Below, piece after piece: positions 7,019 through 58,819 of a DNA stretch of 64,000 nt. The position numbers and the translations under genes were made by a program. The stretch comes from a virus. Position 1 is the first letter of the stretch. Every line of letters starts with the position of its first letter. The stretch covers positions 86,002 through 150,001 of IMG/VR virus record IMGVR_UViG_3300035152_000026. One strand, given 5' to 3'. The notes below the pieces were generated by a model that did no database searches, had not been told where the DNA came from, and saw nothing but the letters and a program-made list of their open reading frames with translations.

Positions 7019-7068
7019 GTGCAGTCTAACAGATGATCGCGGACAGGATCTCGTGATAGTGTGGCTTT

Positions 7069-7805: not shown

Positions 7806-7819
7806 ATCGCGGCCGCGAT
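7806..7819. promoter_or_regulatory. palindromic motif ATCGCGGCCGCGAT (copy 2), upstream of the ribonucleotide reductase gene
   Basis: Perfect 14-bp palindrome about 120 bp upstream of the 7940 start. Confidence 0.4.
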
Positions 7820-7939
7820 TTCTTCGTCGCGTATGACAACGGACAGTTTCTTGTCAGGCCGCGATGCTAGTATGGCCTGCGTCGGGGCGGCACCGAGGCG
7901 CCCGACGTTTGAGCCCTACACAACCGAGGACGGAGACTC

Positions 7940-10294
7940 GTGGAACTGCTGCAACCGAATCTGACCACTATTGGGGAGAGTGTCCTAGCGAAACGGTATC
8001 TGAAGCGGAACGAGAAAGGGGAAGTCATCGAGACGCCACGCGACCGCTTCGTTGCAGTAGCCAAGCATGTCGCACGAGCAGAACGCAATCACGGCGTCGA
8101 TCCGGAGACGGTGTGGCCCTCCTTCTATCGCATGATGGCCGCCCGAGATTTCATGCCAAACACGCCCTGCTTGGTAAATGCGGGACTGTCCGCCGGGCTC
8201 CTGTCCGCCTGCATCGTGTTGCCCATCGAGGACTCGATGCCGAGCATCTTCGGAACACTGCGCGACATGGCATTGAGCCACCAACAGGGCGCTGGGACGG
8301 GGTTCAGTTTTTCGCGGCTGCGCCCCAAAGACGACTTCGTGCGATCCACTACCGGACTTGCGAGTGGTCCGATCAGCTTCATGAAGGCATACAACAACGT
8401 TACGGAGTGCGTGAAGCAAAGCGGCGTTCGGCGCGGGGCGAACATAAGCGTCTTGCGTTGCGACCACCCGGATATTCTCGACTTCATCGACTGCAAGAAA
8501 GATCCGAGCGAGCTACAGAACTTCAACATCAGTGTCGGGATCACGAACGCCTTCATGGACGCGTTGGCAGCAGACGCAATGTACGCGCTGGTCAACCCAC
8601 GCACGAATGAGGTTGTGAGCGAGCTAGCAGCTCGAATGGTTTTCGATCGGGTCGTTCGCAACGCACATGCCACAGGTGAGCCAGGGCTCTTCTTCCTAGA
8701 TCGTGTGAATGAACTCGATCCGTTGACGACGGCCGACGATCCGATTGAAGCCCCAAATCCATGCGGCGAGCAGCCACTTCACCCGTATGACGCTTGCGAT
8801 CTGGGATCGATCAATCTCGTCAACTTCTACGACGTAGCAAATCGAGAATTGGACTTCAAGCGACTCGAAGCTACGACGCAGCTCGCTGTGCGCTTCCTCG
8901 ATGACATCCACGACGTCAACCAGTACCCGATTCCTCAGTTGGCAGAACGCACACGGGAAAATCGCCGTGTTGGCCTCGGCGTCATGGGCTGGGCGGACCT
9001 CCTGATCAAGATGGGTGTTCCCTACGCGTCACAGCAAGCGCGCGACCTCGCCGGCAACGTGATGAAGTTCATCAACACGCAGGCAATCGAAGCCAGCGAG
9101 GAGCTAGCAGCGCTTCGTGGACCGTTTCCAGCATTCGAGCGTTCAAAACACTTCACGGCGGGGCGCAAACACCGTCGCAACGGGACGGTGACCACGATTG
9201 CGCCAACCGGATCCATCTCGATCATCGCGGGATGTTCTAGCGGCATAGAGCCGTTGTTTGCCATCGTCCAGACGCGCAGGCAAGCCGACATGGAGATGGT
9301 AGACGTCAACCCAGACTTCGTCGAGATCGCGAAGCGGGAAGGCTTCTACAGTGATGCGCTCATGGAACGCGTCAAAGAGAACGGCACCGTTCGAGACGAT
9401 CCCGACGTGCCCACACGATGGCAACGTGTCTTCGCGGTCGCCAACGAAATCGATCCAGCTGCGCATGTGCAGATGCAAGCCGCATTTCAGCAGCACGTCG
9501 AGTGCGCGGTGTCCAAAACGATCAACATGCCCAAAGACGCGACCGTTGCTGACGTAGAACGCGCCTACAAGCTCGCCTGGGAAGAAGGTTGCAAGGGCAT
9601 CACGGTCTATCGCGATCAGTGCCGTGCGAATCAAACCCTGACGCTTGGTACCGGCAAGCGCCCCGAGCTGCACCCCATCCCGACGGGTACATATGATCTC
9701 CTCGGCGAGATGATCAAGACGCCCACAGGCAAGCTCAGCGTCAAGGTCGGGTTGGACATCAACGACCGGCCGTTTGAAACCTGGCTCGCTGTCAGCCGTG
9801 CTGGCACAGCAGTCAGCGCCGACTGTGAGGCCATTGCCCGGCTGGGATCCCTGGTGCTCCGGCTGGACAGCCCGATCAGCCCCGAGCGGCGCCTCCAGCT
9901 CATCGCGGACCAGCTCTCGGGCATCGGCGGGGGGGATTCGGTGGGATTTGGGCAAGAACGGGTCCTGTCACTCCCAGATGGGGTCGCCAAGGCCCTCCGT
10001 TCGCTCGCTGACGCGCTCGAAAGCCGCCGAGCGTCTACGCAGGCCTCGCCAGCAGAGGCCGTCGTAGAGCCTCCAGGGGCACCTAAGGGGGATAGCCACG
10101 GCAACGGGCACGGCAATGGGCACGGGCACGGAAATGGCCATGGAAACGGCAACGGGAATGGGAATGGCAACGGTAACGGCAACGGCCACAAACACGTTGC
10201 CTTCGGCGACATCTGCCCAGATTGCCACCAGGTCGCGCTGTACTACGCCGAGGGCTGCGCCAAGTGCGCGCTGTGCGGCTTCTCGCGTTGTTGA
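7940..10294 (+). CDS. nrdJ: ribonucleotide reductase, class II-like monomeric (adenosylcobalamin-dependent type), with a (GHGN)n low-complexity insert and a C-terminal zinc ribbon
   Basis: NPCGEQPLHPYDACDLGSINL is the RNR active-site motif. The length (784 aa) and the C-terminal CPDCH...CAKCALCGFSRC zinc ribbon fit the class II monomeric type. The GHGNGHGNGHGHGNGHGNGNGNGNGNGNGH insert lies at 10086-10190. Confidence 0.75.
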   Translation: MELLQPNLTTIGESVLAKRYLKRNEKGEVIETPRDRFVAVAKHVARAERNHGVDPETVWPSFYRMMAARDFMPNTPCLVNAGLSAGLLSACIVLPIEDSMPSIFGTLRDMALSHQQGAGTGFSFSRLRPKDDFVRSTTGLASGPISFMKAYNNVTECVKQSGVRRGANISVLRCDHPDILDFIDCKKDPSELQNFNISVGITNAFMDALAADAMYALVNPRTNEVVSELAARMVFDRVVRNAHATGEPGLFFLDRVNELDPLTTADDPIEAPNPCGEQPLHPYDACDLGSINLVNFYDVANRELDFKRLEATTQLAVRFLDDIHDVNQYPIPQLAERTRENRRVGLGVMGWADLLIKMGVPYASQQARDLAGNVMKFINTQAIEASEELAALRGPFPAFERSKHFTAGRKHRRNGTVTTIAPTGSISIIAGCSSGIEPLFAIVQTRRQADMEMVDVNPDFVEIAKREGFYSDALMERVKENGTVRDDPDVPTRWQRVFAVANEIDPAAHVQMQAAFQQHVECAVSKTINMPKDATVADVERAYKLAWEEGCKGITVYRDQCRANQTLTLGTGKRPELHPIPTGTYDLLGEMIKTPTGKLSVKVGLDINDRPFETWLAVSRAGTAVSADCEAIARLGSLVLRLDSPISPERRLQLIADQLSGIGGGDSVGFGQERVLSLPDGVAKALRSLADALESRRASTQASPAEAVVEPPGAPKGDSHGNGHGNGHGHGNGHGNGNGNGNGNGNGNGHKHVAFGDICPDCHQVALYYAEGCAKCALCGFSRC

Positions 10295-10733: not shown

Positions 10734-10747
10734 ATCGCGTGAGCGAT
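10734..10747. promoter_or_regulatory. palindromic motif variant ATCGCGTGAGCGAT (copy 3), upstream of the 10765 gene
   Basis: Imperfect member of the ATCGCG-N-CGCGAT family, 18 bp upstream of the ATG. Confidence 0.3.
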
Positions 10748-16811: not shown

Positions 16812-16825
16812 ATCGCGTCTGCGAT
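16812..16825. promoter_or_regulatory. palindromic motif ATCGCGTCTGCGAT (copy 4), 13 bp upstream of the minus-strand gene start at 16799
   Basis: Family member between two minus-strand genes. Confidence 0.35.
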
Positions 16826-17249: not shown

Positions 17250-17351
17250 GGTTTAGTCTAACTCGAAACCGCTGCCAATCGCGTCTCTGATCGAATTTCT
17301 TGCTGTCCCCCGGTCTCTCTGTCAGGGGCCGCCGGGCAACGAATCGTCGGC

Positions 17352-19586: not shown

Positions 19587-20060
19587 ATGATGCAAGCAAC
19601 AGCAGAGATTACCGAAGATGTATGGGCCCAACGACGTGCAGTGCGAGACCGCCTGAAAGCTGCGGTCAAACAGGCCAGCGGACGCAAAGCAACAGTCCTC
19701 TGCATGATGATTTCGCACATGCGGGGAAAGCTCCACTGCCAGAGCTATCAGAAGTACCACGGCGGCTGGCGATCCGTAGCGCAGCAACATGTCGAGGCCA
19801 TGCGCGCACGCAACCGGTTCGAGGAGCGGCTCGGGCCCGGCCAGGAACGCAAGTGGACCGAGTATCTCTTCGCCAGCTCGGTCATCGACACGCTCGACGA
19901 CCAAGCAGCATTTCTCCGCAAGTTCCTCGACGAGGAAGCCGTACAACGACGACGCTACGAGGAGGTCACGCAGAACGGGCGCCGCAAGCCGTACGTGTGG
20001 GAAACTCCTATGTTCGACGAGGAGTTGTGCAACATCTGCAAGGAGGTTTCGGCGACCTGA
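19587..20060 (+). CDS. hypothetical protein
   Basis: 157-aa ORF with GAAAGGA upstream. Confidence 0.4.
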   Translation: MMQATAEITEDVWAQRRAVRDRLKAAVKQASGRKATVLCMMISHMRGKLHCQSYQKYHGGWRSVAQQHVEAMRARNRFEERLGPGQERKWTEYLFASSVIDTLDDQAAFLRKFLDEEAVQRRRYEEVTQNGRRKPYVWETPMFDEELCNICKEVSAT

Positions 20061-20095
20061 CAGAATACGTCAGGCCTGGCCAGTATAGTCAGGCC

Positions 20096-21154
20096 ATGCT
20101 CACATCACCCTGTGACCTAGATCGGCCACCATTCGATGACCTGCACAGCTTCCGGTATTGGCGTAGGCAGGGCTATGTGCCTACCGCGCGGCTCGATGGC
20201 CGGAAAGAGTGGGGAGAGGTCTGTCATCTCCGCTGCCAATCGGATTCAAGTGTCGTAGCGTGTCCTAACAACATTGCCGGTGTACTTGCGTTAGAACGCC
20301 TCCACCAGGCTGTGGTCACGCGAACGTTCTTCGATCCGAAGACAGCACATGACACGGGTACGATCTACGTGACATTGATCCCACGTCCTGTCGTAGACTG
20401 GTTCTCGACATGCACGACGTCGGACGTCCACGAACAGATTGTGCTCTATCTCGGATTGCACATTGCACTCGGAGGCGACCAAGCGCTAATCCTACGTGAC
20501 ACTGCTCGTAAGTATCACGACAAGATTGTCAAACGCGTTGATACGTTACTCCGTGATCACCCCGATCTCCGCAACGATGAGCACGTCGTTGACTTGTCAC
20601 GTTACACGTCGAGTTTGCCTCCTTGGTTTCGACCCGAGCAAGTAACGTACGATAACCGTCGCCTGTGGACACTGCCGCCGCTGTGTCATATACCCTGGCC
20701 GAGGCGCACCAACCGGTGGGACACTTTTGGGATCATCAACTACCGGCTGACGGAAGTTGACGAAAAAAGGATCGACGACCACGAAAGCGATCCGCTTGAT
20801 CGCGCTGAGTCCTGCCCAGACGCGTTCGAGCACTTGCTCTATGCGCGTCACGCGAAAGACGCTTGGGCGACGATGTTTCAATCCGAGGATGACAACACAG
20901 GTGCTATCTATCTCATCCAGGATGGGCGTGGGCGTGTCAAAATCGGATGGACGGATAGTACACCTGCGAAGCGGCTAGCCGCACTACAGACCGGCAACGC
21001 TGATACGCTGCGGCTGCTAGGCACTATCCCCGGAACGCGAGAACAAGAGAAATATCTACACGCGAGATACGCCGACCAGAAAGCCCGTGACGAACGAACC
21101 GAATGGTTTTGTCTCACGCCAGCTGACGTGTTGGAGATTCTACGTGTGTCATAG
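20096..21154 (+). CDS. T5orf172 / GIY-YIG-like domain protein (C-terminal domain)
   Basis: The C-terminus (GAIYLIQDGRGRVKIGWT...RLAALQTGN...EQEKYLHARYA...EWF) matches the T5orf172/MUG113 family. The start is set at the first plausible Met; the 5' 474 nt of ORF 19622..21154 is the alternate frame of the upstream gene. Confidence 0.5.
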   Translation: MLTSPCDLDRPPFDDLHSFRYWRRQGYVPTARLDGRKEWGEVCHLRCQSDSSVVACPNNIAGVLALERLHQAVVTRTFFDPKTAHDTGTIYVTLIPRPVVDWFSTCTTSDVHEQIVLYLGLHIALGGDQALILRDTARKYHDKIVKRVDTLLRDHPDLRNDEHVVDLSRYTSSLPPWFRPEQVTYDNRRLWTLPPLCHIPWPRRTNRWDTFGIINYRLTEVDEKRIDDHESDPLDRAESCPDAFEHLLYARHAKDAWATMFQSEDDNTGAIYLIQDGRGRVKIGWTDSTPAKRLAALQTGNADTLRLLGTIPGTREQEKYLHARYADQKARDERTEWFCLTPADVLEILRVS

Positions 21155-21178
21155 CCGTGTGGTAGCGTCGCAGACCAC

Positions 21179-21251
21179 ACACCCGTAGCTCGAAGGCCGA
21201 GCGTGCAGTCTGTGGAGCTGCAAGGTGGGGGTTCGATTCCCTCCGGGTGTA
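21179..21251 (+). tRNA. isolated tRNA-like gene with an ambiguous anticodon arm (9-nt loop, or 6-bp stem with GTG)
   Basis: Acceptor ACACCCG/CGGGTGT, D-arm GCTC/GAGC, T-arm GGGGG-TTCGATT-CCCTC (identical to the T-arm of tRNA-Thr at 54409). The anticodon region is TGCAG-TCTGTGGAG-CTGCA. Confidence 0.45.
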
Positions 21252-21262
21252 CCGGAGGATCG

Positions 21263-22177: not shown

Positions 22178-22588
22178 ATGCCCGCGTCCACTACTGCCCT
22201 TGAAGCTCTCCAACGGTTCCGCGCATTCGTAGAGGCACTACCACCGAGTGCAAACGTGTTCGTCTACGAACTCAATGTGGCACCCCATGAATTCTGGATC
22301 GAGAACGGCCGCGGTTGGGTTTCGTCGATATTCATCGATCAGCTCAACAAGGAATTCCGCGTCAGCATCCCCGAATTTCCGACGACGGTTGTTGGAGCAC
22401 GGACGTCGCTCGGGCCCGCGGCAGAGCTGCAAGCAGTGCTCGCCCGCGTAGGTCAAAAGAAGCGCTACAGCCGAAAGACTGCAATCGGCGTAGCGACAGC
22501 GGTCGGGGTAGCTGCCGCGCTCGGATCCTTTGCCGTCGGTTGGACACGCAGGCCAGGCCCGTCAAGAATCCTCTATCCAGGGCCGTAA
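22178..22588 (+). CDS. hypothetical protein
   Basis: 136-aa ORF. Confidence 0.35.
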   Translation: MPASTTALEALQRFRAFVEALPPSANVFVYELNVAPHEFWIENGRGWVSSIFIDQLNKEFRVSIPEFPTTVVGARTSLGPAAELQAVLARVGQKKRYSRKTAIGVATAVGVAAALGSFAVGWTRRPGPSRILYPGP

Positions 22589-22618
22589 CCTGCCAAAACT
22601 GCTACGATATATTTTCAA

Positions 22619-22700
22619 GACGAATCGCGTCCGCGATTAGAATATCCGGTCGTGTACCTCGTCTCACTATAAGACGGCCCCGAGGGGCGAAGGAGACGAG
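22619..22700 (+). promoter_or_regulatory. conserved ~80-bp leader (palindrome copy 5 ATCGCGTCCGCGAT at 22623-22636, CCCCGAGGGG element, AAGGAG Shine-Dalgarno) upstream of the UvrD-like helicase gene. Paralogous to 58820-58902.
   Basis: Long alignment with the region upstream of the SNF2 gene at 58903: AATCGCGTCYGCGA...GAATAT...CCCCGAGGGG.GAAGGAGA..AGATG. Confidence 0.5.
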
Positions 22701-24161
22701 ATGGGAACCTGGAACTGGAGCGAACAACAGGAAGAAATCTTCAGCTGGTTCGAGCACGGGCACGGCAACCTGGTGGTGGTCGCCCGCGCGGGCACCGGCA
22801 AGACCACGACCGTGCTCGAAGGCGCCAACCGCGCCCCCGAGCGCAGCATCCTGTTCGCGGCCTTCAACAAGAAGATCGCGACCGAGCTTCAGACCAAGAT
22901 CACGAACCGCAATGCAGAGGCCAAGACGCTGCACGCGCTCGGCTTCGCATTCCTCCGCCAGTACGACCGTCGCCTCCGCGTGGACGGGCAGCGCGGCTAC
23001 AAGATCGCGCGCGACGTCTGCGGCCAGGACGTCCCCGAGGACATCGTGTCGCTCGTCGCCAAGCTCGCCTCGCGTGGCAAGGGCATGGCGCCGTTCGCCG
23101 AGAAGATGGGCGACCTGACCGACATCGCGTACGACCATGACTGCGTACCCGATGAGGAGTGGGAGCGCGACGGCTACGACCTCGCCTATGTCGAGCGCCA
23201 CGCCCTCAAGGCGATGGACAAGGCTTGTGACCGCGACGGCAGCATCGACTTCGACGACATGGTGTTCATCCCCGTGCGTCGGCAGCTCACCCGCGCCTGG
23301 TACAACCTCGTGATCATCGACGAGTGCCAGGATATGAACGCCGCCCAGATCACGCTCGCGATGAAGGCCTGCAAGCGCGGCGGCCGCATCGCTGTCATCG
23401 GCGACAACCGTCAGGCCATCTACGGCTTCCGCGGCGCCGACTCCGAGAGCATCAGCCGGCTCAAGGCTGAGCTGAACGCGGCCGAGCTGAAGCTCACCAC
23501 GACCTATCGCTGTGGCAAGGTCATCGTGGCCGAGGCCGCTCAGCTCGTTCCCGACTACGAGGCCGCGCCGACCGCGCCCGAGGGCGAGATCACCACGCTC
23601 CCCAAGACCAAGCTTGCTGAGACGGCCGTCGAGGGTGACTTCATCCTGAGCCGCACCAACGCGCCGCTCGTGAGCGTCTGCCTCAAGTGCCTGCGCCTCG
23701 GCAAGCGTGCCCGCATCGAGGGCCGTGACATCGGCGCCGGGCTGCTCGCCCTGGTCAAGAAGCTCGCAACGGGCCCTGCCCGCAAGTCCATCGCGAGCCT
23801 TCTGGAGAAGCTCACGGCCTGGGAGGAGCGCGAGGTCGCCCGTGCTCGCAAGAGCAGCGACAAGAACGCCGAGACGCGTGTCGAGACTATCGAGGACAAG
23901 GCTGAAACCCTTCGTCTGCTGGCCGAAGGTCTCGCCAACGTCGAGGAGCTGAAGACCCGTCTCGACGAGCTGTTTGAGGACTCGAACGGCCACCGGCCGA
24001 AGATCGTGTGCAGTACGGTTCACAAGGCCAAGGGCCTCGAAGCTGACCGCGCATTCCTGTTGTCGAGCACCTTCCGTCCTGTTGGTACTGCCCTCGAAGA
24101 GGACAACATCCGCTACGTTGCGGTGACTCGCGCAAAGAGCGTCCTGACCTGGGTCGAGTAA
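22701..24161 (+). CDS. SF1 DNA helicase, UvrD/Rep/PcrA family
   Basis: Walker A (ARAGTGKTTT), Walker B/DExx (VIIDECQDM), TYRCG (motif IV), STVHKAKGLEADRAF (motif V) and VAVTRAKSVL (motif VI). Confidence 0.8.
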   Translation: MGTWNWSEQQEEIFSWFEHGHGNLVVVARAGTGKTTTVLEGANRAPERSILFAAFNKKIATELQTKITNRNAEAKTLHALGFAFLRQYDRRLRVDGQRGYKIARDVCGQDVPEDIVSLVAKLASRGKGMAPFAEKMGDLTDIAYDHDCVPDEEWERDGYDLAYVERHALKAMDKACDRDGSIDFDDMVFIPVRRQLTRAWYNLVIIDECQDMNAAQITLAMKACKRGGRIAVIGDNRQAIYGFRGADSESISRLKAELNAAELKLTTTYRCGKVIVAEAAQLVPDYEAAPTAPEGEITTLPKTKLAETAVEGDFILSRTNAPLVSVCLKCLRLGKRARIEGRDIGAGLLALVKKLATGPARKSIASLLEKLTAWEEREVARARKSSDKNAETRVETIEDKAETLRLLAEGLANVEELKTRLDELFEDSNGHRPKIVCSTVHKAKGLEADRAFLLSSTFRPVGTALEEDNIRYVAVTRAKSVLTWVE

Positions 24162-27605: not shown

Positions 27606-27619
27606 GATCGCGGATCCGA
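27606..27619. promoter_or_regulatory. palindromic motif variant ATCGCGGATCCGAT (copy 6), upstream of the minus-strand gene start at 27574
   Basis: Imperfect family member. It contains GATC and GGATCC. Confidence 0.3.
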
Positions 27620-27627
27620 TCAAATCG

Positions 27628-28500
27628 CTACTGCTGTCGCAGCACGTTTCGATGTGAAGTGATGAGCAAACAAGCGACTTTGCCACGTTTCTTCGCGTCG
27701 CAATTCACACGGCGAAGCTCGCCTGTACGCGTAAGGTGTGCCCAACGATAGAGCTTGCGTACTTCAGGTAGATCGTTGTTGGCTGCAACGAATGCGGCAC
27801 CGCGCTTTGCAGCATCCTGTAGCTCGTCGGCGAGAGCTGCATGGTCACCGACGCTAAAACCTTCTTTGAGGTAGTTCGAGAAGACGCCGTAGTACGGCGG
27901 GTCCACGAACAAGAAGTCACCGGCGCCAGCACGGCGAATCACCTGACGGAAGTCCGCAGCGGTAAGCTCAGAGCTACGGATGGCAGCGATGAAAGGATCT
28001 GCTTTCGTCTGCGTGAGAAATGATGGCTTCTGCGACTTCCGAGATCCGTGCGGCACGTTGTACTCGCCCTTCGAGTTCTCGCGGTAGACGCCGTTGAAGC
28101 CAGTCGCGTTCATGTAGAGAAACCAGGCCGCGCGTTGAACCTTCCCTTGGGGATGCTCCGCGCGGATCTTGTAGTACGCGTCTGCGTCCGTCCCACGCCG
28201 TCGATAGTTCTTGAGCGACCAGAGCACAACGTCTCGGTTGCGACACAGTTGCTCGAAGGCATTGATCAGCGGTTCACAAAGATCTGCGAGCAGCATGTTG
28301 GGTAGCCCGAGGTCTGCTGCGACTGCGCCACCTCCAAGGAAGGGCTCGATGTACCGTCCACCAGTGCTTTGCAGATGCGCGTAGGCCACGTCTGAAACAA
28401 TGGGCACGAGCCAGCGTTTGCCGCCTACCCACCGGACAATGGGCTTCGCATGCGCACGCTCGGGCAACTCAGACGGCAACGGCTTCAGCCTGGTCATCAT
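27628..28500 (-). CDS. dam: DNA adenine methyltransferase, Dam/D12 class
   Basis: VRWVGGKRWLVPIV (motif I region), FLGGGAV, and DPPY (motif IV). Confidence 0.8.
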   Translation of the reverse strand: MMTRLKPLPSELPERAHAKPIVRWVGGKRWLVPIVSDVAYAHLQSTGGRYIEPFLGGGAVAADLGLPNMLLADLCEPLINAFEQLCRNRDVVLWSLKNYRRRGTDADAYYKIRAEHPQGKVQRAAWFLYMNATGFNGVYRENSKGEYNVPHGSRKSQKPSFLTQTKADPFIAAIRSSELTAADFRQVIRRAGAGDFLFVDPPYYGVFSNYLKEGFSVGDHAALADELQDAAKRGAAFVAANNDLPEVRKLYRWAHLTRTGELRRVNCDAKKRGKVACLLITSHRNVLRQQ

Positions 28501-37667: not shown

Positions 37668-39053
37668 CTAGCCCTCCCGATGCGCGCAGTGATCCCACTG
37701 GCTGCACATGCCGTAGCGGCTGACGCAATTAGCACGCGCTCGGGGGAAGATACCGCCGGCCATCATGAAGAGCCGCATCCCTTGCCACATCCGCAAGTCG
37801 TTCGCGTGCTGCTTTATTTGCCAGCGCTGCGGAACGACAAGCGTACGGTGGAATTGTTGTTGGCGCTGCTTACCAATGATGTTCATCATCACGCCGGTCA
37901 GCTTGCCGAATTTGCGGGTCAGCTTGAGACGCTGCCAAAGCATGATCTGGCCAATGACCTCGCCGTCGTTCTGCCAACCATCGAGTGTGGCAGTATCGAA
38001 CCTGCCAGTCGTCTTGTGTTCGACCACATACGTTCCAGCAGGAAAACGCGAGTCCGCCTTTTCAACTTTGGCAATCAGGTCGTAGCGAGCTGACTCTTTT
38101 GTCTCTGAGTCCACCACGTGGTACTCGACTGCAAGCGGTGTGATGAAGTCTTGCTCGTAGAAGAGCGCGTAGCCTGCCCAAAGGCGCCACGCTTCCATCA
38201 GAACTGCGGCATCACAACCCGCGTCGAGCAACGCCTTGTTCAGAATCTCAGGCGTGAGCGGGTAGGCTGGATCAATGAATTGCTGGTAGTACACCGCGAG
38301 GAAGGCATGAACCGCTGAACCGATCTCGATATAGTTTGGTGGACGTTCCTCTACGTACCGCAAGCCGTCGATGTATAGCCGCTTGAAGAGGTAGGGGCAG
38401 CGCTGGTACGTCGAGAAGCTTGACCAACCCAGGTCGCCCGACGCGCCACCCAACCGCGGCACCTCGTACGCCTTGAAAACCTGATGTAGGCCTTTGTCCA
38501 GCGGCGTGATGGTGAGATCACGTTCGGTAGGCAAGAGCAACGTGCCATCTTCCGCGGTAGCCGCACCTGCCGGCAATATCGACGGCACTATGTCGGCTTT
38601 CTTTGTCCGCCGCTTCCTGGGTTTGGGCGGCGGTGGCGCCGAAGGAAGCACCGGTAGTTCGTCTTCGTAGTCTTCGTCTTCGTCTACGTCTGAAATCCCG
38701 TCTGCGATCTCAGACGCAACGTCAGGTGAGTCAGTCGCGTCCGCGATAACGTCCTCGGGAGGTACCGGTGCTGCATCAACGACCGGTTGCGTGACCTCAT
38801 AGATGAAACCATCATCGGCAATGAAGTACTGACGATCGAGGCTTTCTCCCGCTGCATCTACTAGGATAGCAATGCAGGGTGCGTCGGCGTCGTGCTCGAA
38901 GATGCCTTCAGCACCGGTCGCGATGCAACGAGTACCGCAGACAACGCAGTAAACGTCGTCCTGCGTCGTCTTGATCGCGTCCGCGATCCCGTCAATACCA
39001 TAGTTTTGGGTGTCAGGTGCCGTTGTAGGCGTCATCCCGCCCTGTCTTGCCAT
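37668..39053 (-). CDS. PD-(D/E)XK nuclease, Cas4/RecB-like exonuclease with Fe-S Cys cluster and an extra acidic N-terminal domain
   Basis: Four-Cys pattern: N-proximal QRCPYLFKR plus C-terminal CVSRYGMCSQWDHC. Adjacent to the Sak4/DUF669 genes (classic phage recombination module). Confidence 0.6.
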   Translation of the reverse strand: MARQGGMTPTTAPDTQNYGIDGIADAIKTTQDDVYCVVCGTRCIATGAEGIFEHDADAPCIAILVDAAGESLDRQYFIADDGFIYEVTQPVVDAAPVPPEDVIADATDSPDVASEIADGISDVDEDEDYEDELPVLPSAPPPPKPRKRRTKKADIVPSILPAGAATAEDGTLLLPTERDLTITPLDKGLHQVFKAYEVPRLGGASGDLGWSSFSTYQRCPYLFKRLYIDGLRYVEERPPNYIEIGSAVHAFLAVYYQQFIDPAYPLTPEILNKALLDAGCDAAVLMEAWRLWAGYALFYEQDFITPLAVEYHVVDSETKESARYDLIAKVEKADSRFPAGTYVVEHKTTGRFDTATLDGWQNDGEVIGQIMLWQRLKLTRKFGKLTGVMMNIIGKQRQQQFHRTLVVPQRWQIKQHANDLRMWQGMRLFMMAGGIFPRARANCVSRYGMCSQWDHCAHREG

Positions 39054-40742: not shown

Positions 40743-41094
40743 TCCGTGCCTCTAACACACGGCACTGACAGGCGAGATCTCCTCCAAAAAAGTCGCGGTG
40801 GGTAACCTGTGGACAAGCTATGGAAGTCACCGGAAGTGCGAACAGGCAGTCGCAACTGCAAAAAAGTTGACAGCGTAGAACGAGCAAAACCTCGTTGACT
40901 CACAGGATCTGATGTTGTATCGAAGACGAAGAAAGCGACCGAGGTCACCGGAGGACAGACGGGGGGTGTATAGTGGTCATTCACGTCAGCCACAGCAGCC
41001 GGGACGATGATCAAAAACTTACCTCTGAAAACTGCCTATCGAAAACTCTGCGCCATCACGGCTCCGTGGGTCATACAGCCAAAGAGAGGGGCCG
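40743..41094. promoter_or_regulatory. divergent intergenic region with direct repeats GARGTCACCGGARG (40820s and 40940s), A-runs and TTGACA/TTGACT boxes; candidate bidirectional promoter or origin region
   Basis: Strand switch between a minus-strand and a plus-strand gene block. Lower GC than the flanks. Repeated 16-mer. Confidence 0.35.
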
Positions 41095-54480: not shown

Positions 54481-54484
54481 CTGA

Positions 54485-54558
54485 TCCCTCGTAGCTCAAT
54501 TGGTAGCAGCACCTGGCCGTTAACCAGGGGGTTATCCGTTCAAGTCGGATCGAGGGAG
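54485..54558 (+). tRNA. trnN: tRNA-Asn (GTT), D-stem with a one-base insertion
   Basis: Acceptor TCCCTCG/CGAGGGA, anticodon CCTGG-CCGTTAA-CCAGG, T ATCCG-TTCAAGT-CGGAT. Confidence 0.55.
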
Positions 54559-54626
54559 CTACTGGTAGTCAAAGGAAAGGCCCTCGTTGACTAACGCAGG
54601 ATCGTACTCTCAGGTACCTTAGAGCT

Positions 54627-55136
54627 ATGGAATGCGCCAAGTGCCACGAAGAGTTTCCTACTCGAATAGTCATAGACGGGAAGGTGCGGAACCTGTCGAG
54701 TCGTAGGTACTGCGTTTCCTGCTCCCCATTTGGGGCTAACAATCGGAAGAAGATCCACATCCACGATATAAGACGTAAGCCGACTAGGTGTAGGTTGTGC
54801 TCAGGGAAGCTAGTCCCCGGGAAAGGGGATGTATGCTACACCTGTCGATCTAGGATTAGGCGATATCGGGTGAAGGTTGCGGCTATAACCCTCCTTGGCG
54901 GAAAGTGTCAACGCTGTGGTTTCTCAGGGAGTCCAGCAGCCTTTGAGTTCCACCACAACGGTAAGAAGGACTTTCAGATCAGCGAGAACAGCAACCGAGC
55001 GTGGGCTGTAGTCAAGAAGGAAGTTCTGAAATGCGAACTCCTGTGTTCCAATTGCCATCGACAGGAGCACACTGGAGATAGGGGGGAGGCGTTCCTTCGT
55101 GCCGTAGCGGAGTACAGAGGGATGCCCCTGACCTGA
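54627..55136 (+). CDS. HNH endonuclease inserted in the tRNA array (homing-endonuclease-like)
   Basis: Cys pairs CAKCH/CVSC and CQRCG; FEFHH...CSNCHRQEH is the HNH motif. Local GC is lower than the flanks. Confidence 0.7.
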   Translation: MECAKCHEEFPTRIVIDGKVRNLSSRRYCVSCSPFGANNRKKIHIHDIRRKPTRCRLCSGKLVPGKGDVCYTCRSRIRRYRVKVAAITLLGGKCQRCGFSGSPAAFEFHHNGKKDFQISENSNRAWAVVKKEVLKCELLCSNCHRQEHTGDRGEAFLRAVAEYRGMPLT

Positions 55137-55138
55137 CT

Positions 55139-55209
55139 GGCTTCGTAGTCAAGTGGCAAGGCACGGGTCTGCAAAACCTGTATCGTGGGTTCGACTCCCA
55201 CCGAAGCCT
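55139..55209 (+). tRNA. trnC: tRNA-Cys (GCA)
   Basis: Acceptor GGCTTCG/CGAAGCC, anticodon loop CTGCAAA, T GTGGG-TTCGACT-CCCAC. Confidence 0.6.
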
Positions 55210-55253
55210 CCGCAAAGCAAGCATTCCCAGTGACGAGGGAAAACACGTCCTCT

Positions 55254-55325
55254 GGCCTCGTCTGCTAACGGTCAAGCAGCTGGTCTTTCAAGCCAGCAAT
55301 CCGAGTTCGATTCTCGGCGGGGTCA
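55254..55325 (+). tRNA. trnE: tRNA-Glu (TTC)
   Basis: Acceptor GGCCTCG/CGGGGTC (two G-U pairs), anticodon CTGGT-CTTTCAA-GCCAG, T CCGAG-TTCGATT-CTCGG. Confidence 0.55.
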
Positions 55326-55329
55326 CAAC

Positions 55330-55402
55330 CGGAGCGTAGGGTATTTGGCAACCCGCTTGGTTTGGGACCAAGAGCATGCAGGTTCGAGTCCTGTCGCTCC
55401 GA
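55330..55402 (+). tRNA. trnP: tRNA-Pro (TGG)
   Basis: Acceptor CGGAGCG/CGCTCCG, anticodon CTTGG-TTTGGGA-CCAAG, T GCAGG-TTCGAGT-CCTGT. Confidence 0.7.
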
Positions 55403-55403
55403 C

Positions 55404-55475
55404 CGGGGTGTAGCGAAGCGGTATCGCGCATGGTTCGGGACCATGAGATCGCTGGTTCGATCCCAGCCACTCCGA
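55404..55475 (+). tRNA. trnP: tRNA-Pro (CGG)
   Basis: Acceptor CGGGGTG/CACTCCG, anticodon CATGG-TTCGGGA-CCATG, T GCTGG-TTCGATC-CCAGC. Confidence 0.7.
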
Positions 55476-55479
55476 CTGA

Positions 55480-55550
55480 TCCCCTGTAGCTCAACAGGAG
55501 AGCACTCGCTTGATAAGCGAGAGATGACAGCGCAACTCTGTCCGGGGGAA
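55480..55550 (+). tRNA. trnI: tRNA-Ile (GAT), atypical T-loop CGCAACT
   Basis: Acceptor TCCCCTG/CGGGGGA, anticodon CTCGC-TTGATAA-GCGAG. Confidence 0.55.
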
Positions 55551-55555
55551 CTGAT

Positions 55556-55630
55556 GGTGGGCGTAGCTCAATGGCAGAGCGCGCGGTTGTGGCCCGCGTG
55601 ATGGAAGTTCGATTCTTCTCGCTCACCCCA
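55556..55630 (+). tRNA. trnH: tRNA-His (GTG) with encoded G-1, C73 discriminator and CCA
   Basis: G-1 precedes acceptor GTGGGCG/CGCTCAC. Anticodon CGCGG-TTGTGGC-CCGCG. T GGAAG-TTCGATT-CTTCT. Confidence 0.7.
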
Positions 55631-55644
55631 AGAAGTCATAGTTA

Positions 55645-55680
55645 GAGCGGGAAGTGCAGGTTCGATTCCTGTCGGTTGCG
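55645..55680 (+). pseudogene. orphan tRNA 3' fragment (T-arm GCAGG-TTCGATT-CCTGT plus acceptor-like 3' strand); decayed partial duplicate of the tRNA-Pro(TGG) 3' half
   Basis: AGTGCAGGTTCGATTCCTGTCGGTTGCG vs the Pro 3' half GCATGCAGGTTCGAGTCCTGTCGCTCCG. There is no room for a 5' half after tRNA-His. Confidence 0.4.
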
Positions 55681-55721
55681 GTCGCCGCGCCGTGGTGTAA
55701 CAAGGGAGCACGCTCGCGTTT

Positions 55722-55793
55722 GGAGCTGTAAGCATCTGGTGAGGCTACCGGTCTGTCTAACCGGCGAGGCGGGTTCAATTCCCGTCAGCTCCG
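55722..55793 (+). tRNA. trnD: tRNA-Asp (GTC)
   Basis: Acceptor GGAGCTG/CAGCTCC, anticodon CCGGT-CTGTCTA-ACCGG, T GCGGG-TTCAATT-CCCGT. Confidence 0.65.
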
Positions 55794-55865
55794 CGGCTAG
55801 AGGTGTGGCGCGAAAGCGAAGCCCTAAACCGTCACCTCCGAGCGGGTGCGAGGCCCGCATTTGTT

Positions 55866-55936
55866 GGCCCAGTAGCACAACGGCAGGGCGCTTGCCTTAT
55901 AAGCGAGTGATCTAGGTTCAACTCCTAGCTGGGCTA
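55866..55936 (+). tRNA. tRNA-Ile (TAT) (rare AUA-reading anticodon as encoded)
   Basis: Acceptor GGCCCAG/CTGGGCT, anticodon CTTGC-CTTATAA-GCGAG, T CTAGG-TTCAACT-CCTAG. Confidence 0.5.
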
Positions 55937-55947
55937 CAAATCCGTTT

Positions 55948-56020
55948 GCCACCCAAGCTAACCAAGTGGAAGCGCCGGCCTGAAAAGCCGGAGGGCTCGG
56001 AGCGTTACCGAGGAGTGGCA
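55948..56020 (+). tRNA. tRNA-Phe (GAA)-like with a non-canonical T-loop
   Basis: Acceptor GCCACCC/GAGTGGC (one mismatch), anticodon CCGGC-CTGAAAA-GCCGG (canonical Phe loop), T-like CTCGG-AGCGTTA-CCGAG. Confidence 0.35.
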
Positions 56021-56067
56021 CGGCCAAGAGACGGACGCGTCTCCGAGCGGGTGGAAGGCCCGCACAA

Positions 56068-56139
56068 GGGCCAATAGTGATAAAGGGAACACGCTGCTTT
56101 CGCACGGCAGAGATCTGGGTTCGATTCCCAGTTGGTCCA
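56068..56139 (+). tRNA. trnA: tRNA-Ala (CGC)
   Basis: Acceptor GGGCCAA/TTGGTCC, anticodon CTGCT-TTCGCAC-GGCAG, T CTGGG-TTCGATT-CCCAG. Confidence 0.55.
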
Positions 56140-56306
56140 CAATGCAGGAGCACGTACCTGCCTTGCTGCTGGGCGAACAGACAGCGTAGTCGGGCTTAGC
56201 TAGCTGCGGACTTGCTGGGAGCTTCCAGTATTGGCCTCTGAGGAGGGACGCCTCTGTTCGAGGAGGAGACAAAAACGTGTCGGCGGGGTTAGTTCCTCGT
56301 CGTTAT

Positions 56307-56379
56307 GGGCACCCATGTACCAAGGGGGCGATCTGGCCTTGCAAGCCGGATGTGGTCGGTTCGATCCCGACGGTGTCCA
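56307..56379 (+). tRNA. tRNA-like, Ala (TGC)-type anticodon loop CTTGCAA, irregular D-arm
   Basis: Acceptor GGGCACC/GGTGTCC, T GTCGG-TTCGATC-CCGAC. The D region does not fold canonically. Confidence 0.35.
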
Positions 56380-56403
56380 CGAGCGGGTGGAAGGCCCGCC
56401 TAA

Positions 56404-56475
56404 GGGCTGCTAGTGATAACGGGAACACATCTGGTTTGCACCCAGAAGATCGGGGTTCGATTCCCCGGCGGTCCA
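56404..56475 (+). tRNA. trnA: tRNA-Ala (TGC)
   Basis: Acceptor GGGCTGC/GCGGTCC, anticodon TCTGG-TTTGCAC-CCAGA, T CGGGG-TTCGATT-CCCCG. Confidence 0.55.
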
Positions 56476-56479
56476 CGAC

Positions 56480-56551
56480 GCCCTCGTAGCTCAATGGAGA
56501 GAGCACTCGCCCGGTACGCGAGAGATGACAGTTCGATTCTGTCCTTGGGCT
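56480..56551 (+). tRNA. tRNA-Thr (GGT)-like, two acceptor-stem mismatches
   Basis: D GCTC/GAGC, anticodon CTCGC-CCGGTAC-GCGAG, T GACAG-TTCGATT-CTGTC. Acceptor GCCCTCG vs CTTGGGC. Confidence 0.4.
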
Positions 56552-56558
56552 CTGATTC

Positions 56559-56627
56559 GCCTCTGCCGGTGGAGCCGGACTCCGGGCTACGAACTCGGAA
56601 GACGAGGTTCGATTCCTCGTAGAGGCA
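56559..56627 (+). tRNA. trnR: tRNA-Arg (ACG), compact D-arm (69 nt)
   Basis: Acceptor GCCTCTG/TAGAGGC, anticodon CCGGG-CTACGAA-CTCGG, T CGAGG-TTCGATT-CCTCG. Confidence 0.55.
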
Positions 56628-56631
56628 CGAT

Positions 56632-56699
56632 GCCACTGCTGGTGGAACAGATTCGGGTCTCCTAAACCTGAAGAGATGGTTCGACTCCGTCCAGTGGTA
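56632..56699 (+). tRNA. trnR: tRNA-Arg (CCT), compact D-arm (68 nt)
   Basis: Acceptor GCCACTG/CAGTGGT, anticodon CGGGT-CTCCTAA-ACCTG, T GATGG-TTCGACT-CCGTC. Confidence 0.55.
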
Positions 56700-56702
56700 C
56701 TT

Positions 56703-56770
56703 GCCTCTACTCATGGATGAGGCGCTGCTCTTCTAAAGCAGCTACTCGGGTTCGATTCCTGATGGAGGCG
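56703..56770 (+). tRNA. trnR: tRNA-Arg (TCT), compact D-arm (68 nt)
   Basis: Acceptor GCCTCTA/TGGAGGC, anticodon CTGCT-CTTCTAA-AGCAG, T TCGGG-TTCGATT-CCTGA. Confidence 0.55.
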
Positions 56771-56774
56771 CTTT

Positions 56775-56849
56775 TGCGGGGAGGTTGCTAGTTACCTGTC
56801 AGGTCTCATAAGCCTGACCACGCTGGTGCAATTCCAGCCCCCGCTACCA
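56775..56849 (+). tRNA. trnM: tRNA-Met (CAT) with unpaired 1:72 and encoded CCA, T-loop TGCAATT
   Basis: Acceptor TGCGGGG/CCCCGCT (T-T at 1:72), anticodon CAGGT-CTCATAA-GCCTG. Confidence 0.5.
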
Positions 56850-56923
56850 CGCAGCGACCTACGGGTTAGGCGGCTCGTCTCATAAGCGAGACCGTGAGGG
56901 TCCGATTCCCTCCGCTGCGACCA
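56850..56923 (+). tRNA. tRNA (CAT): elongator Met or Ile2 (lysidine) type
   Basis: Acceptor CGCAGCG/CGCTGCG, anticodon CTCGT-CTCATAA-GCGAG, T GAGGG-TCCGATT-CCCTC, CCA encoded. Confidence 0.55.
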
Positions 56924-56924
56924 C

Positions 56925-56997
56925 GCCGGTCAGCTCACCTGGGGGTGGGACCTGCCTTACAAGCAGGACGCGCTGAGTTCGATTCTCAGGACCGGTA
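56925..56997 (+). tRNA. trnV: tRNA-Val (TAC)
   Basis: Acceptor GCCGGTC/GACCGGT, anticodon CCTGC-CTTACAA-GCAGG, T CTGAG-TTCGATT-CTCAG. Confidence 0.65.
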
Positions 56998-57131
56998 CTG
57001 ATGCGGCCACAGCTAGTCGAAGTTTCGGCAGGGCGGTTGTAGTGACCGTCCCTAGTGGATCGATTCACGGGCTCTAAGGGATTGGAGAGAAGGTCTCCAT
57101 CGGGCGATGGGCTGCATCTTTTGCCTGTGTA

Positions 57132-57205
57132 CCCCAATTGGAAGAGGGAGCGCGCTCAGAACGCGTACAGTGTCAGTTCGAGTCTGACCACAGGTACTCG
57201 CCTCC
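57132..57205 (+). tRNA. tRNA with anticodon CAG (a Leu codon reader) on a class-I scaffold (short variable arm)
   Basis: Acceptor GCCTGTG/CACAGGT, anticodon GCGCG-CTCAGAA-CGCGT, T GTCAG-TTCGAGT-CTGAC. The variable arm is only 4 nt. Confidence 0.45.
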
Positions 57206-57208
57206 GTG

Positions 57209-57279
57209 ATGAAGTGGTGTCATACCTGACCTTTAATCAGGCTACGAGGGTTCGAGTCCTTCCGGGGGCACAAAGCGGG
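57209..57279 (+). tRNA. trnK: tRNA-Lys (TTT)
   Basis: Acceptor GCCTCCG/CGGGGGC, D ATGA/TCAT, anticodon CCTGA-CCTTTAA-TCAGG, T GAGGG-TTCGAGT-CCTTC. Confidence 0.6.
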
Positions 57280-57283
57280 CGTG

Positions 57284-57357
57284 ATGTTCAACGGCCAGCA
57301 TGCGAGGCTTCCAACCTCGTCGTATGGGTTCGAGTCCCATCGTCCGCTCTACTCGGG
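57284..57357 (+). tRNA. trnG: tRNA-Gly (TCC)
   Basis: Acceptor GCGGGCG/CGTCCGC, anticodon CGAGG-CTTCCAA-CCTCG, T ATGGG-TTCGAGT-CCCAT. Confidence 0.65.
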
Positions 57358-57361
57358 GTTG

Positions 57362-57435
57362 ATCCAATGGCAAGATACTCGGCTTTGACCCGAGCAATCT
57401 GGGTTCGAGTCCCAGACCCCGAACCATTCCGGCTT
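57362..57435 (+). tRNA. trnQ: tRNA-Gln (TTG), CCA encoded
   Basis: Acceptor TCGGGGT/ACCCCGA, anticodon CTCGG-CTTTGAC-CCGAG, T CTGGG-TTCGAGT-CCCAG. Confidence 0.65.
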
Positions 57436-57436
57436 C

Positions 57437-57507
57437 GTCTAACGGTAGGACCCACGACTCTGGATCGTGGTATCGGGGTTCGAGTCCCTGAGCCGGAGCT
57501 GCCACCG
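57437..57507 (+). tRNA. trnQ: tRNA-Gln (CTG)
   Basis: Acceptor TCCGGCT/AGCCGGA, anticodon CACGA-CTCTGGA-TCGTG, T CGGGG-TTCGAGT-CCCTG. Confidence 0.65.
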
Positions 57508-57509
57508 TG

Positions 57510-57583
57510 CCCCAATTGGAAGAGGGTCTCGGCTAAGGACCGAGGTGTTGAGAGTTCGAGTCTCTCCGGTGGTACGACGCCCG
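57510..57583 (+). tRNA. tRNA with anticodon AAG (Leu CUN reader if inosine-modified) on a class-I scaffold
   Basis: Acceptor GCCACCG/CGGTGGT, anticodon CTCGG-CTAAGGA-CCGAG, T GAGAG-TTCGAGT-CTCTC. Paralog of the CAG tRNA (shared D region CCCCAATTGGAAGAGGG). Confidence 0.45.
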
Positions 57584-57587
57584 AGTG

Positions 57588-57666
57588 GTGGAAGGGCATA
57601 CACGGCTGGCCTAAACCCAGCTGCTTCGGCGTGAGAGTTCAAATCTCTCCTCGGGCACGATAAGCT
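57588..57666 (+). tRNA. trnL: tRNA-Leu (TAA), class II
   Basis: Acceptor GCCCGAG/CTCGGGC, anticodon GCTGG-CCTAAAC-CCAGC, variable arm TGCTTCGGCGT, T GAGAG-TTCAAAT-CTCTC. Confidence 0.6.
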
Positions 57667-57672
57667 CAGATG

Positions 57673-57752
57673 GTGGAATAGGCATACACGTCCGTCTCAA
57701 AAGCGGATGCTTCGGCGTGAGGGTTCGAGTCCCTCTCTGAGCACGGACAGCA
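57673..57752 (+). tRNA. trnL: tRNA-Leu (CAA), class II
   Basis: Acceptor GCTCAGA/TCTGAGC, anticodon TCCGT-CTCAAAA-GCGGA, variable arm TGCTTCGGCGT, T GAGGG-TTCGAGT-CCCTC. Confidence 0.6.
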
Positions 57753-57770
57753 ACCAGAAAGGAGCGAGTC

Positions 57771-58319
57771 ATGGACACGTTGGTTCTCGATCAGTCCTAC
57801 TTGCCCGTGGCGCGGATCCACTGGCAACGTGCAATCACTTTGCTCTTCCTTGGCAAGGTAGAGGTCGTGGATGAATACACCGACAGAAACATCCGGTCGG
57901 TGACGTTCTCGATCAAGATGCCATCCGTCGTTCGATTCATCACGCGGATGCGACGAAAGAAGCGTGTCGTGAAGTTCTCACGCGAGAACGTCTACACACG
58001 CGATCACGGAAGGTGCCAGTACTGTGGAGATCAAGTGCCACGTCTGGAGGCTACCTATGATCACGTTGTGCCGCGAACGCTCGGCGGGCAAACGACCTGG
58101 GAGAACGTAGTCATCTGTTGCGTAGCGTGCAACCAACAGAAGGGTGGACGAACGCCACAACAAGCCGGCATGCGACTACGATCGAAGCCGGTGAAGCCAA
58201 AGAAGCTGCCTGACGTACACATCACAGTGACGTGGACGCCCGGCATGCCCGAGGCGTGGCGTGCATGGACATGGAAGGTAAACCAGGCGGGGCCTGGGCC
58301 TGCCTCGAAAGCAGCGTGA
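57771..58319 (+). CDS. HNH endonuclease (HNHc domain) inserted in the tRNA array
   Basis: CQYCG...YDHVVPRTLGG...NVVICCVACNQQKG is the canonical HNH motif. Confidence 0.75.
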   Translation: MDTLVLDQSYLPVARIHWQRAITLLFLGKVEVVDEYTDRNIRSVTFSIKMPSVVRFITRMRRKKRVVKFSRENVYTRDHGRCQYCGDQVPRLEATYDHVVPRTLGGQTTWENVVICCVACNQQKGGRTPQQAGMRLRSKPVKPKKLPDVHITVTWTPGMPEAWRAWTWKVNQAGPGPASKAA

Positions 58320-58363
58320 GCGCAAGCTTGGGGATCGAGACCTCTGCCTTCCGCATGCAGTTG

Positions 58364-58447
58364 GAGAATGAATCAGGTGTGGACCTGAGCCCGGTTGGAA
58401 ACCGGTGCGTGCGCAGCTGCGCATAGTGTTCGACTCACTCGTTCTCC
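58364..58447 (+). tRNA. trnS: tRNA-Ser (GGA), class II
   Basis: Acceptor GAGAATG/CGTTCTC, D TCAG/CTGA, anticodon loop TTGGAAA, palindromic variable arm GCGCAGCTGCGC, T AGTG-TTCGACT-CACT. Confidence 0.5.
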
Positions 58448-58525: not shown

Positions 58526-58582
58526 GTGGTGTAATGGCAACACGCTAAACAAACCGAGCGCATCGTTCTCCGAACCACTTTT

Positions 58583-58665: not shown

Positions 58666-58675
58666 CTTTCGCCCT

Positions 58676-58759: not shown

Positions 58760-58819
58760 CGGCTAACCCAACGCAATAGAGTCCTAACCGTGCAGAATCG
58801 TTGTTGATTGTCGTGTAAG

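Follow-up and report, generated by a model that had tools for sequence, protein, structure and literature searches.

Two helicase genes of a large uncultivated phage share cis-elements at the same spacing in front of their start codons, far beyond what chance would give. These shared elements are most simply read, judging from the sequence, as common transcriptional and translational signals, and we hold with moderate confidence that both genes are preceded by the same compact cis-regulatory module, which would consist of an operator, an ECF-type promoter, a hairpin and a Shine-Dalgarno (SD) sequence and would have been kept by selection. The window, i.e., the whole stretch of 64,000 nt that was analysed (58.5% G+C), is part of a genome of at least 150 kb and encodes a ribonucleotide reductase, a DNA polymerase, several helicases, a primase, a Dam-like methyltransferase and a Sak4-like annealing protein. 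No close cultured phage was found, either by megablast against 50,697 phage records (no match) or by tblastn against cultured phages, where the best identity was only 35%. The two genes, whose UvrD-like and SNF2-like character had been proposed in the initial annotation and is borne out by Pfam, are the following:

22701-24161, + strand: UvrD/PcrA-like SF1 helicase gene, 486 aa (Pfam PF00580, UvrD/REP family, 2e-29)
58903-61200, + strand: SNF2-family helicase gene, 765 aa (Pfam PF00176, 5e-29; PF00271, 1e-10)

The matches of the UvrD-like helicase to the NCBIfam rep, pcrA and uvrD families are all below cutoff, and the N-termini of both proteins are backed by homologues (e.g., MRHRTNRY is kept in a 60% relative, L016). 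Several metagenome contigs carry identical copies of the UvrD gene together with its leader. Regarding the surroundings, the window contains 33 tRNA genes, of which 32 form one array (53880-58760); given that the lists of ARAGORN and Rfam disagree (Rfam places a tRNA at 55480-55550, with 59.9 bits, that ARAGORN does not list, and ARAGORN lists several that Rfam misses), the array may exceed 32 tRNAs. Upstream of the UvrD leader lie a homing-endonuclease-like T5orf172/MUG113 gene and then a tRNA-His (19622-21253), and upstream of the SNF2 leader a homing-endonuclease-like HNH gene and then four tRNAs (57771-58760). An unusual neighbour for a phage replication region is an 868-aa protein (45486-48092, + strand) with Major Vault Protein shoulder (3e-30) and Vault_3 domains and without a PHROG match.

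Shared blocks in the two leaders and in related phages

Genes were called in the window by a crude codon-usage method, and the 100 nt upstream of each called gene were aligned in all pairs (n = 3741). The pair formed by the upstream regions of the UvrD and SNF2 genes reached a local alignment score of 57, the best of all window pairs (mean 14.3, sd 2.5), followed by a score of 38 within a repeat array and otherwise by scores of 29 or less (29 for the best unrelated pair). When compared with 2000 mononucleotide shuffles, the same pair gave z = 19.7, with a shuffle maximum of 26. The leader sequences at 22619-22700 (leader A, UvrD) and 58820-58902 (leader B, SNF2) are as initially described, and with the top rank and this z-score the caveat attached to them, namely that their alignment might be no better than that of random intergenic pairs, does not apply: the similarity is real.

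Aligned without gaps at a fixed offset of 36,200 nt, the two leaders are identical at 43 of 70 positions, with the common blocks AAGAnnAATCGCGTCYGCGA, GAATAT, CGTCnnACT and GACGG(T)CCCCGAGGGG(A)CGAAGGAGA. The order in both is palindrome, GAATAT, CGTC (16 nt past GAAT), the hairpin G(T)CCCCGAGGGG(A)C, AAGGAGA and ATG. The 14-nt spacer between GAATAT and CGTC, on the other hand, is identical at 3 of 14 positions, which is the random level, and the DNA flanking the leaders does not align. Matching blocks at fixed spacing around a random spacer thus amount to a string of discrete conserved elements and not to a uniformly similar duplicate. The elements are given below, with their state in three related metagenomic phages (L013, L015 and L142) where it applies.

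Leader A
22600-22608, + strand: candidate host-type extended -10 box TGCTACGAT, in leader A only (TGnTAnnnT class, 15 nt upstream of the palindrome)
22624-22637: palindrome ATCGCGTCCGCGAT, putative operator, perfect ATCGCG-NN-CGCGAT (kept in L013, L015 and L142)
22640-22645, + strand: -35-like box GAATAT (GAAT in 5 of 5 leaders, 16-17 nt before CGTC)
22660-22663, + strand: ECF-type -10-like box CGTC (among the few invariant column runs of the five-sequence alignment)
22677-22688, + strand: hairpin GCCCC-GA-GGGGC (GCCCCGAGGGGC), immediately before the SD (unchanged in L013 and L015)
22690-22696, + strand: SD sequence AAGGAGA, 4 nt before the ATG at 22701
Leader B
58824-58837: palindrome ATCGCGTCTGCGAA, putative operator, with one arm mismatch
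58840-58845, + strand: -35-like box GAATAT
58860-58863, + strand: -10-like box CGTC (five-sequence alignment)
58876-58889, + strand: hairpin GTCCCC-GA-GGGGAC (GTCCCCGAGGGGAC)
58891-58897, + strand: SD sequence AAGGAGA, 5 nt before the ATG at 58903
Motifs of the module: ACGGCCCCGAGGGGCGAAGGAGAC and GAAT-N16-CGTC

The palindrome is present in both leaders, as claimed at the outset, but it is not unique to them (there are nine copies in the window) and one of its arms carries the mismatch noted for B; likewise, the claim of the same spacing is right for the blocks, which keep the constant offset, but not for the distance from SD to ATG, which differs by 1 nt. An nhmmer profile built from five leaders (A, B, L013, L015 and L142) found no third full copy in the window and the loci examined, so that the search for the same leader elsewhere, advised in the initial annotation, yielded only operator copies and one partial match. 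The latter, at 17277-17335 (+ strand), covers the front part of the module (AATCGCGTCTCTGATCGAATTTC... and, further on, GGTC) amid a cluster of minus-strand genes, and might represent either an antisense promoter or a copy in decay.

The contigs of the closest UvrD homologues were fetched for comparison, and three related metagenomic phages, with 61-78% protein identity, keep the blocks. In L013/L014 (UvrD 78% identical at the amino acid level, 64% G+C) the leader reads GATCGCAGCTGCGATC-GAATTT-N-CGTCTGACT-N-GGCCCCGAGGGGCGAAGGAGAC-ATG. In L015 (76%, 54% G+C) it reads GATCACAGTAGCGATC, a 7-nt insertion, GAATAG, CGTC and GGCCCCGAGGGGCG, followed by a different ribosome-site region, and the insertion shifts GAAT and CGTC jointly, preserving GAAT-N16-CGTC. 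L013/L014 and L015 therefore both retain the palindrome, GAAT, CGTC and GGCCCCGAGGGGCG, while the more distant L142 (61%) keeps GATCGTGACTACGATC-GAATATTC-N-CGTCAT and is missing the hairpin. Across the five aligned sequences CGTC is invariant, and the gap between GAAT and CGTC is N16 in A, B and L015 and N17 in L013 and L142. As the blocks common to A and B are those of the orthologous UvrD leaders, they point to functional selection and not to a recent copy; the comparisons number only one paralogous and three orthologous.

Beyond these phages the module fades. It is absent from UvrD relatives with 57-60% identity (L143, L149 and L150), nothing recognisable of the leader is kept in L001-L007 (60% or less), and the UvrD relatives found in IMG/VR (53% identity or less) are without it. 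SNF2 relatives were not found in the IMG/VR search, and a hairpin-plus-SD pattern returned from the same database only chance matches in coding DNA. A metagenome scan for the pattern of palindrome, gap and CCCCGAGGGG gave chance matches among the matches listed, the source leader itself not being among them. The closest SNF2 relatives, L016 (60%) and L017 (55%), have different upstream regions without the module, which makes the SNF2 copy known from this phage alone. Upstream of the SNF2 gene of L016, a TARA contig, there is another perfect palindrome at about 9880-9910 (AAATGCACCAAATGGTGCATTT, ATGCACCA-AA-TGGTGCAT), which suggests the same architecture with another regulator specificity. Within the window, the combination of proposed promoter, hairpin and SD is specific to the two helicase genes, and among these phages it is an ancestral feature of the UvrD gene.

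A dispersed palindrome as predicted operator

The first element of the leaders belongs to a larger set. With at most one mismatch, ATCGCGNNCGCGAT has nine copies in the window against 0.4 expected, and the looser ATCGC-N4-GCGAT has seven perfect copies, five of them in the non-coding 24% of the window (p = 0.011). The related phage L013 carries at least eight intergenic copies in 21 kb, mostly located 4-8 nt upstream of TGnTAnnnT boxes. Apart from those in the leaders, the predicted operator copies in the window include:

1493-1506: upstream of an HTH gene; conserved in L013 at 1533
7806-7819: ahead of the ribonucleotide reductase gene; L013 has the same arrangement at 14566
10734-10747: 2 nt upstream of the extended -10 box TGATAGGGT of a leaderless gene (ATG at 10765)
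16812-16825: between two minus-strand genes
27607-27620: one mismatch; located in the gap of 53 nt that precedes gene 27574 (- strand)

The distance from the palindrome to the extended -10 box is 2-8 nt at most sites and about 45-58 nt at the reductase gene; the palindrome can also sit at -66 or downstream of the -10 box, as does the copy at 16812 with respect to a TAGAAT box. This variable distance argues for a binding site of a regulator and against a core promoter element, and the presence of the palindrome before HTH, ribonucleotide reductase and leaderless genes means that it does not single out the two helicases. From its sequence and distribution, the palindrome is thus predicted to be a phage-wide operator family placed beside many promoters. 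All six copies of TCGCGTCYGCGA are on the + strand, some of them in regions of minus-strand genes, i.e., the orientation does not follow transcription.

The 14-bp ATCGC-N4-GCGAT operator would probably be bound by a DNA-binding regulator of the phage, whose best candidate in the window is the product of the following gene:

1625-2239, + strand: excisionase-family (HTH_17) protein with two HTH stretches (Pfam HTH_17, 8e-11; TIGR01764, 5e-7)

It is favoured because an operator copy lies upstream of its gene, both here and in L013, an arrangement from which we infer that it may bind the operator. It is the only recognisable DNA-binding protein among about 70 window proteins scanned, and a solved relative of it was not found. 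The long upstream region of the same gene contains a second near-palindrome, AGGACGCGTCCCTGT (1556-1570), perfectly conserved in L013 (at about 1600; 78% relative).

Several other sites bear some relation to this family. A 50-nt intergenic region (7019-7068) holds divergent, back-to-back leaderless promoters (TGTTAGACT and TGATAGTGT), with a degenerate operator (7036-7049) 4 nt from each of them. Upstream of the reductase gene the order is operator (7806), inverted repeat TATGACAACGGACAGTTTCTTGTCA (7832-7856) and promoter TGCTAGTAT (7865-7873), and the same order is found in L013 (14566-14650); the inverted repeat may be a site for a reductase-specific regulator. Three operator-like copies lie within 300 nt (38695-38987) in the 5' part of a minus-strand PD-(D/E)XK nuclease gene, where they are translated into recurring I-A-D-A/G peptides within an acidic stretch. 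Furthermore, GATC flanks many operator copies (e.g., GATCGCGTCCGCGATC at 38973), both helicase leaders read AATC, and the window encodes a D12-class (Dam-like) adenine methyltransferase (27628-28500, - strand); methylation might modulate the occupancy of the operator.

Promoter type, hairpin and rival readings

The prevailing promoter type of the window is not that of the helicase leaders. There are 43 TGnTAnnnT boxes, 20 of which fall in non-coding DNA (24% of the window), and at least ten of them sit 4-8 nt before a start codon:

Extended -10 boxes 4-8 nt before starts: 7023 (-), 7054 (+), 10750 (+), 11765 (+), 12591 (+), 14832 (-), 15348 (-), 19547 (-), 24568 (-), 48149 (+)

Such short distances imply leaderless mRNAs for many genes, and the signals suggest a host with Actinobacteria- or Deinococcus-like expression. 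In the codon-usage call an AAGGAG-class SD precedes only six genes, both helicase genes among them. The two helicase genes, having a leader and such an SD, form a class apart from the leaderless extended -10 genes. No TGnTAnnnT box occurs in the shared region of the leaders, nor does any match to the sigma-70 consensus (TTGACA-N16-18-TATAAT, at least 9 of 12 positions, with A2 and T6) in the shared part of either of them; the sole match, at 22541-22569, falls inside the upstream gene.

Promoters recognised by ECF sigma factors typically carry AAC in the -35 box, CGT or CGTC in the -10 box, spacers of 14-17 bp and a close adherence to the consensus (PMC5758882). All five leaders have CGTC, and at a spacing of N16 or N17 from GAAT; their -35 core is AAT and not AAC, the box being GAAT instead of the commoner GAAC. 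GGAAT-type -35 boxes do occur for SigR/SigH, and at mapped ECF promoters transcription starts about 10 nt past the -10 box. The likeness is thus greatest to ECF group 4 promoters (e.g., those of B. subtilis sigma-M/X/V/W and of actinobacterial SigH/SigR), with which the leaders share the AA(C/T) core of the -35, the CGTC of the -10, the separation of about 16 nt, the close consensus adherence and a small gene set apart from the housekeeping promoters. They differ from them in having GAAT and not GAAC or AAAC, in having no cognate sigma gene in the window, in the putative palindromic operator that abuts the promoter and in their location in a phage. On the basis of this likeness we infer that GAAT and CGTC act as -35 and -10 boxes of an ECF-type sigma factor, a reading that explains why they are the sole invariant blocks and why they shift jointly in L015. 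Across the window GAAT-N15-17-CGTC is not over-represented (nine found against about six expected), and a third site of this kind (40958-40982), upstream of another helicase gene (40742, - strand), is within chance expectation and was set aside. A Pfam scan of about 70 window proteins found no sigma factor gene, and extending the window by about 1 kb at its left end and 4 kb at its right end brought in no sigma domain either. A distant relative without the module, L150 (UvrD 57% identical, 36% G+C), does encode a sigma factor 2.4 kb upstream of its UvrD gene (704-1558), but one with Sigma70_r2 and r3 domains.

Under the proposed mechanism, GAAT-N16-CGTC, abutting the operator, would be a two-block promoter for an ECF-type alternative sigma. 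Transcription would start about 10 nt past CGTC, within the conserved GA(C/A)GG that immediately precedes the hairpin, giving a leader of about 30-35 nt, and the centre of the operator would come to lie near -41, where a bound regulator could occlude or recruit the RNA polymerase. The predicted leader would begin with the conserved GC-rich hairpin GCCCCGAGGGGC, likely a 5' stabiliser or a protein-binding site, and would end in the consensus SD AAGGAGA.

The main rival, which we consider unlikely, is a promoter for the housekeeping sigma followed by a structured leader of at least 70 nt, acting as a shared translational operator or riboregulator. The -10 box would be GAATAT (TAGAAT in A, a 5/6 match to TATAAT) or, in A, TGCTACGAT, which at 22600 fits the promoter class of the window; the palindrome would be a repressor site over the spacer, and a helix of CGUC with the SD would enclose the hairpin and control the access of the ribosome. 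Such helices appear in the minimum free energy folds of A, where CUCGUCUC pairs with GAGACGAG over 8 bp and would sequester the SD, and of B, where CUCCU pairs with AGGAG, as well as in L015, where UUUGGCCUUC pairs with GAAGAGCCAAA (z = -3.3), the hairpin being enclosed in each. However, the other fold z-scores are weak (A -1.4, B -0.8, L013 -1.8), L013 has no comparable anti-SD helix, and RNAalifold on four sequences gave no covarying pair. A second, upstream hairpin of 5 bp (CGTCT/AGACG and its equivalents) was discarded, being no better than shuffles (fraction as stable 0.25-0.61). The promoter side fares no better: TGCTACGAT is in neither B nor the orthologous leaders, GAATAG in L015 does not end in the T that a -10 box requires, TCGAAT in B and L013 has no A at position 2, and the candidate boxes are without the TGn extension found at the other promoters of the window. 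A long leader also offers no account of why CGTC is invariant and keeps a fixed distance from GAAT.

The hairpin itself can be read in two ways. Exact matches to CCCCGAGGGG in the 64-kb window are confined to the two leaders, in the same orientation and directly before the SD (about 2-3 nt). Within the short transcript predicted above, the element alone folds at -8 to -10 kcal/mol, and 12-14 nt of it (GGCCCCGAGGGGCG) do not vary between A, L013 and L015 amid diverged flanks, an invariance that suggests specific recognition. In leader B, compared with A, the CCCCGAGGGG core is flanked by one further base on either side; the outer G:C pair is changed to T:A (U:A in RNA) and one G:C pair is added, making the stem longer. 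Being conserved in sequence and not by covariation, the hairpin could equally be a site in double-stranded DNA, and accordingly GCCCCGAGGGGC, a near-palindrome with a 2-bp centre, might be a second operator for another dimeric protein, just past the start site and acting together with the upstream palindrome. We regard this as quite improbable. The invariant core with diverged flanks, the symmetry of the only change in B, as expected in a DNA palindrome, and the lack of G-U pairs or asymmetric changes would all suit it; nevertheless, the element is found only twice in 64 kb, in one orientation and abutting the SD, and no second candidate for a DNA-binding protein came out of the roughly 70 proteins scanned.

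Short stable stem-loops near the 5' end of the mRNA and before the ribosome site are known from the E. coli ompA leader and from the operators of phage T4 gene 43 and gene 32. The likeness to these is a stem-loop directly upstream of the ribosome site at or near the 5' end; the sequences are unrelated, and the role proposed here comes from position alone. Lambdoid nut sites combine a boxA with a boxB hairpin (GCCCUGAAAAAGGGC) that has a GNRA-like pentaloop, and the helicase leaders resemble them in a GCCC...GGGC stem within the leader of a phage transcription unit. A nut site was nonetheless rejected, given that there is no boxA-like sequence and that the loop is CGAG (4 nt) or GA instead of a GNRA-like pentaloop; moreover, antitermination would be of no obvious use to a monocistronic unit such as that of UvrD, behind which the genes are convergent. 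As for Rfam, only tRNAs reach the gathering threshold in the window; the leaders match best to PhotoRC-I, on the opposite strand and at 9.6 and 16.1 bits, where 45 are required.

Finally, the initial annotation spoke of duplicated or co-opted cassettes. A recent duplication or mobile cassette, in which recombination would have copied one leader to the other gene and the likeness would be historical without shared function, is scarcely tenable: a homing-endonuclease-like gene and one or more tRNA genes do lie shortly upstream of both leaders, but the likeness is confined to discrete blocks around a random spacer (3 of 14), the flanks do not align and the leaders of UvrD orthologues with only 61-78% protein identity retain these blocks, which makes them old and constrained.

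Known dispersed operators and significance for the phage

Dispersed operators have well-studied precedents. In cluster A mycobacteriophages a monomer binds the stoperators, asymmetric 13-mers that are oriented in the direction of transcription (PMC9283540, PMC6550527). The palindrome described here shares with them a short motif repeated genome-wide, mainly in short intergenic regions beside promoters: there are many copies (9 against 0.4) and they are biased to intergenic DNA (five of seven non-coding). It differs in being a 5-4-5 palindrome, and so neither asymmetric nor oriented by transcription, and in its variable position with respect to the -10 box. The phiC31 repressor, for its part, binds conserved inverted repeats beside the early promoters of its phage, and the same likeness in repetition and position holds for its sites. 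One motif repeated beside many promoters points to a single phage regulator acting at many sites. A more speculative extension, to which we would give little credence, is that one regulator, possibly the protein with two HTH stretches, represses the leaderless, early extended -10 promoters (operator at about -25) and activates the helicase promoters (about -41, of a weak alternative type), with the hairpin adding a translational or stability checkpoint specific to the helicases.

A different kind of repeated sequence is found at the left end of the window, where about ten copies of a direct repeat of some 40 nt (CCCGGAATGCTAGCTCGATGGCTACYCAATCGAGAC) occupy positions 11-1162, spaced 55-75 nt or more and largely non-coding; a diverged copy lies at 54135-54174. 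Each repeat includes TGCTAGCTC, similar to the extended -10 boxes. The contig L146 (1-972) prolongs this non-coding region leftward, and several metagenome contigs end there. The region might serve as an origin or iteron region, mark the terminus of the genome or constitute an array of promoters.

If the proposed reading is true, a single phage with 33 tRNA genes in the window would combine a dispersed operator family, a class of leaderless extended -10 promoters and a second class, of the alternative-sigma type and with a structured leader, reserved for two DNA-remodelling helicases. This would provide concrete motifs for annotating related metagenomic phages and would tie the time at which the helicases are expressed to one regulator, in a way open to testing. 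Phages are already known to have dispersed operators and distinct promoter classes, and therefore no general concept is changed; the module looks like an ordinary, though previously undescribed, instance of a familiar organisation of phage gene regulation.
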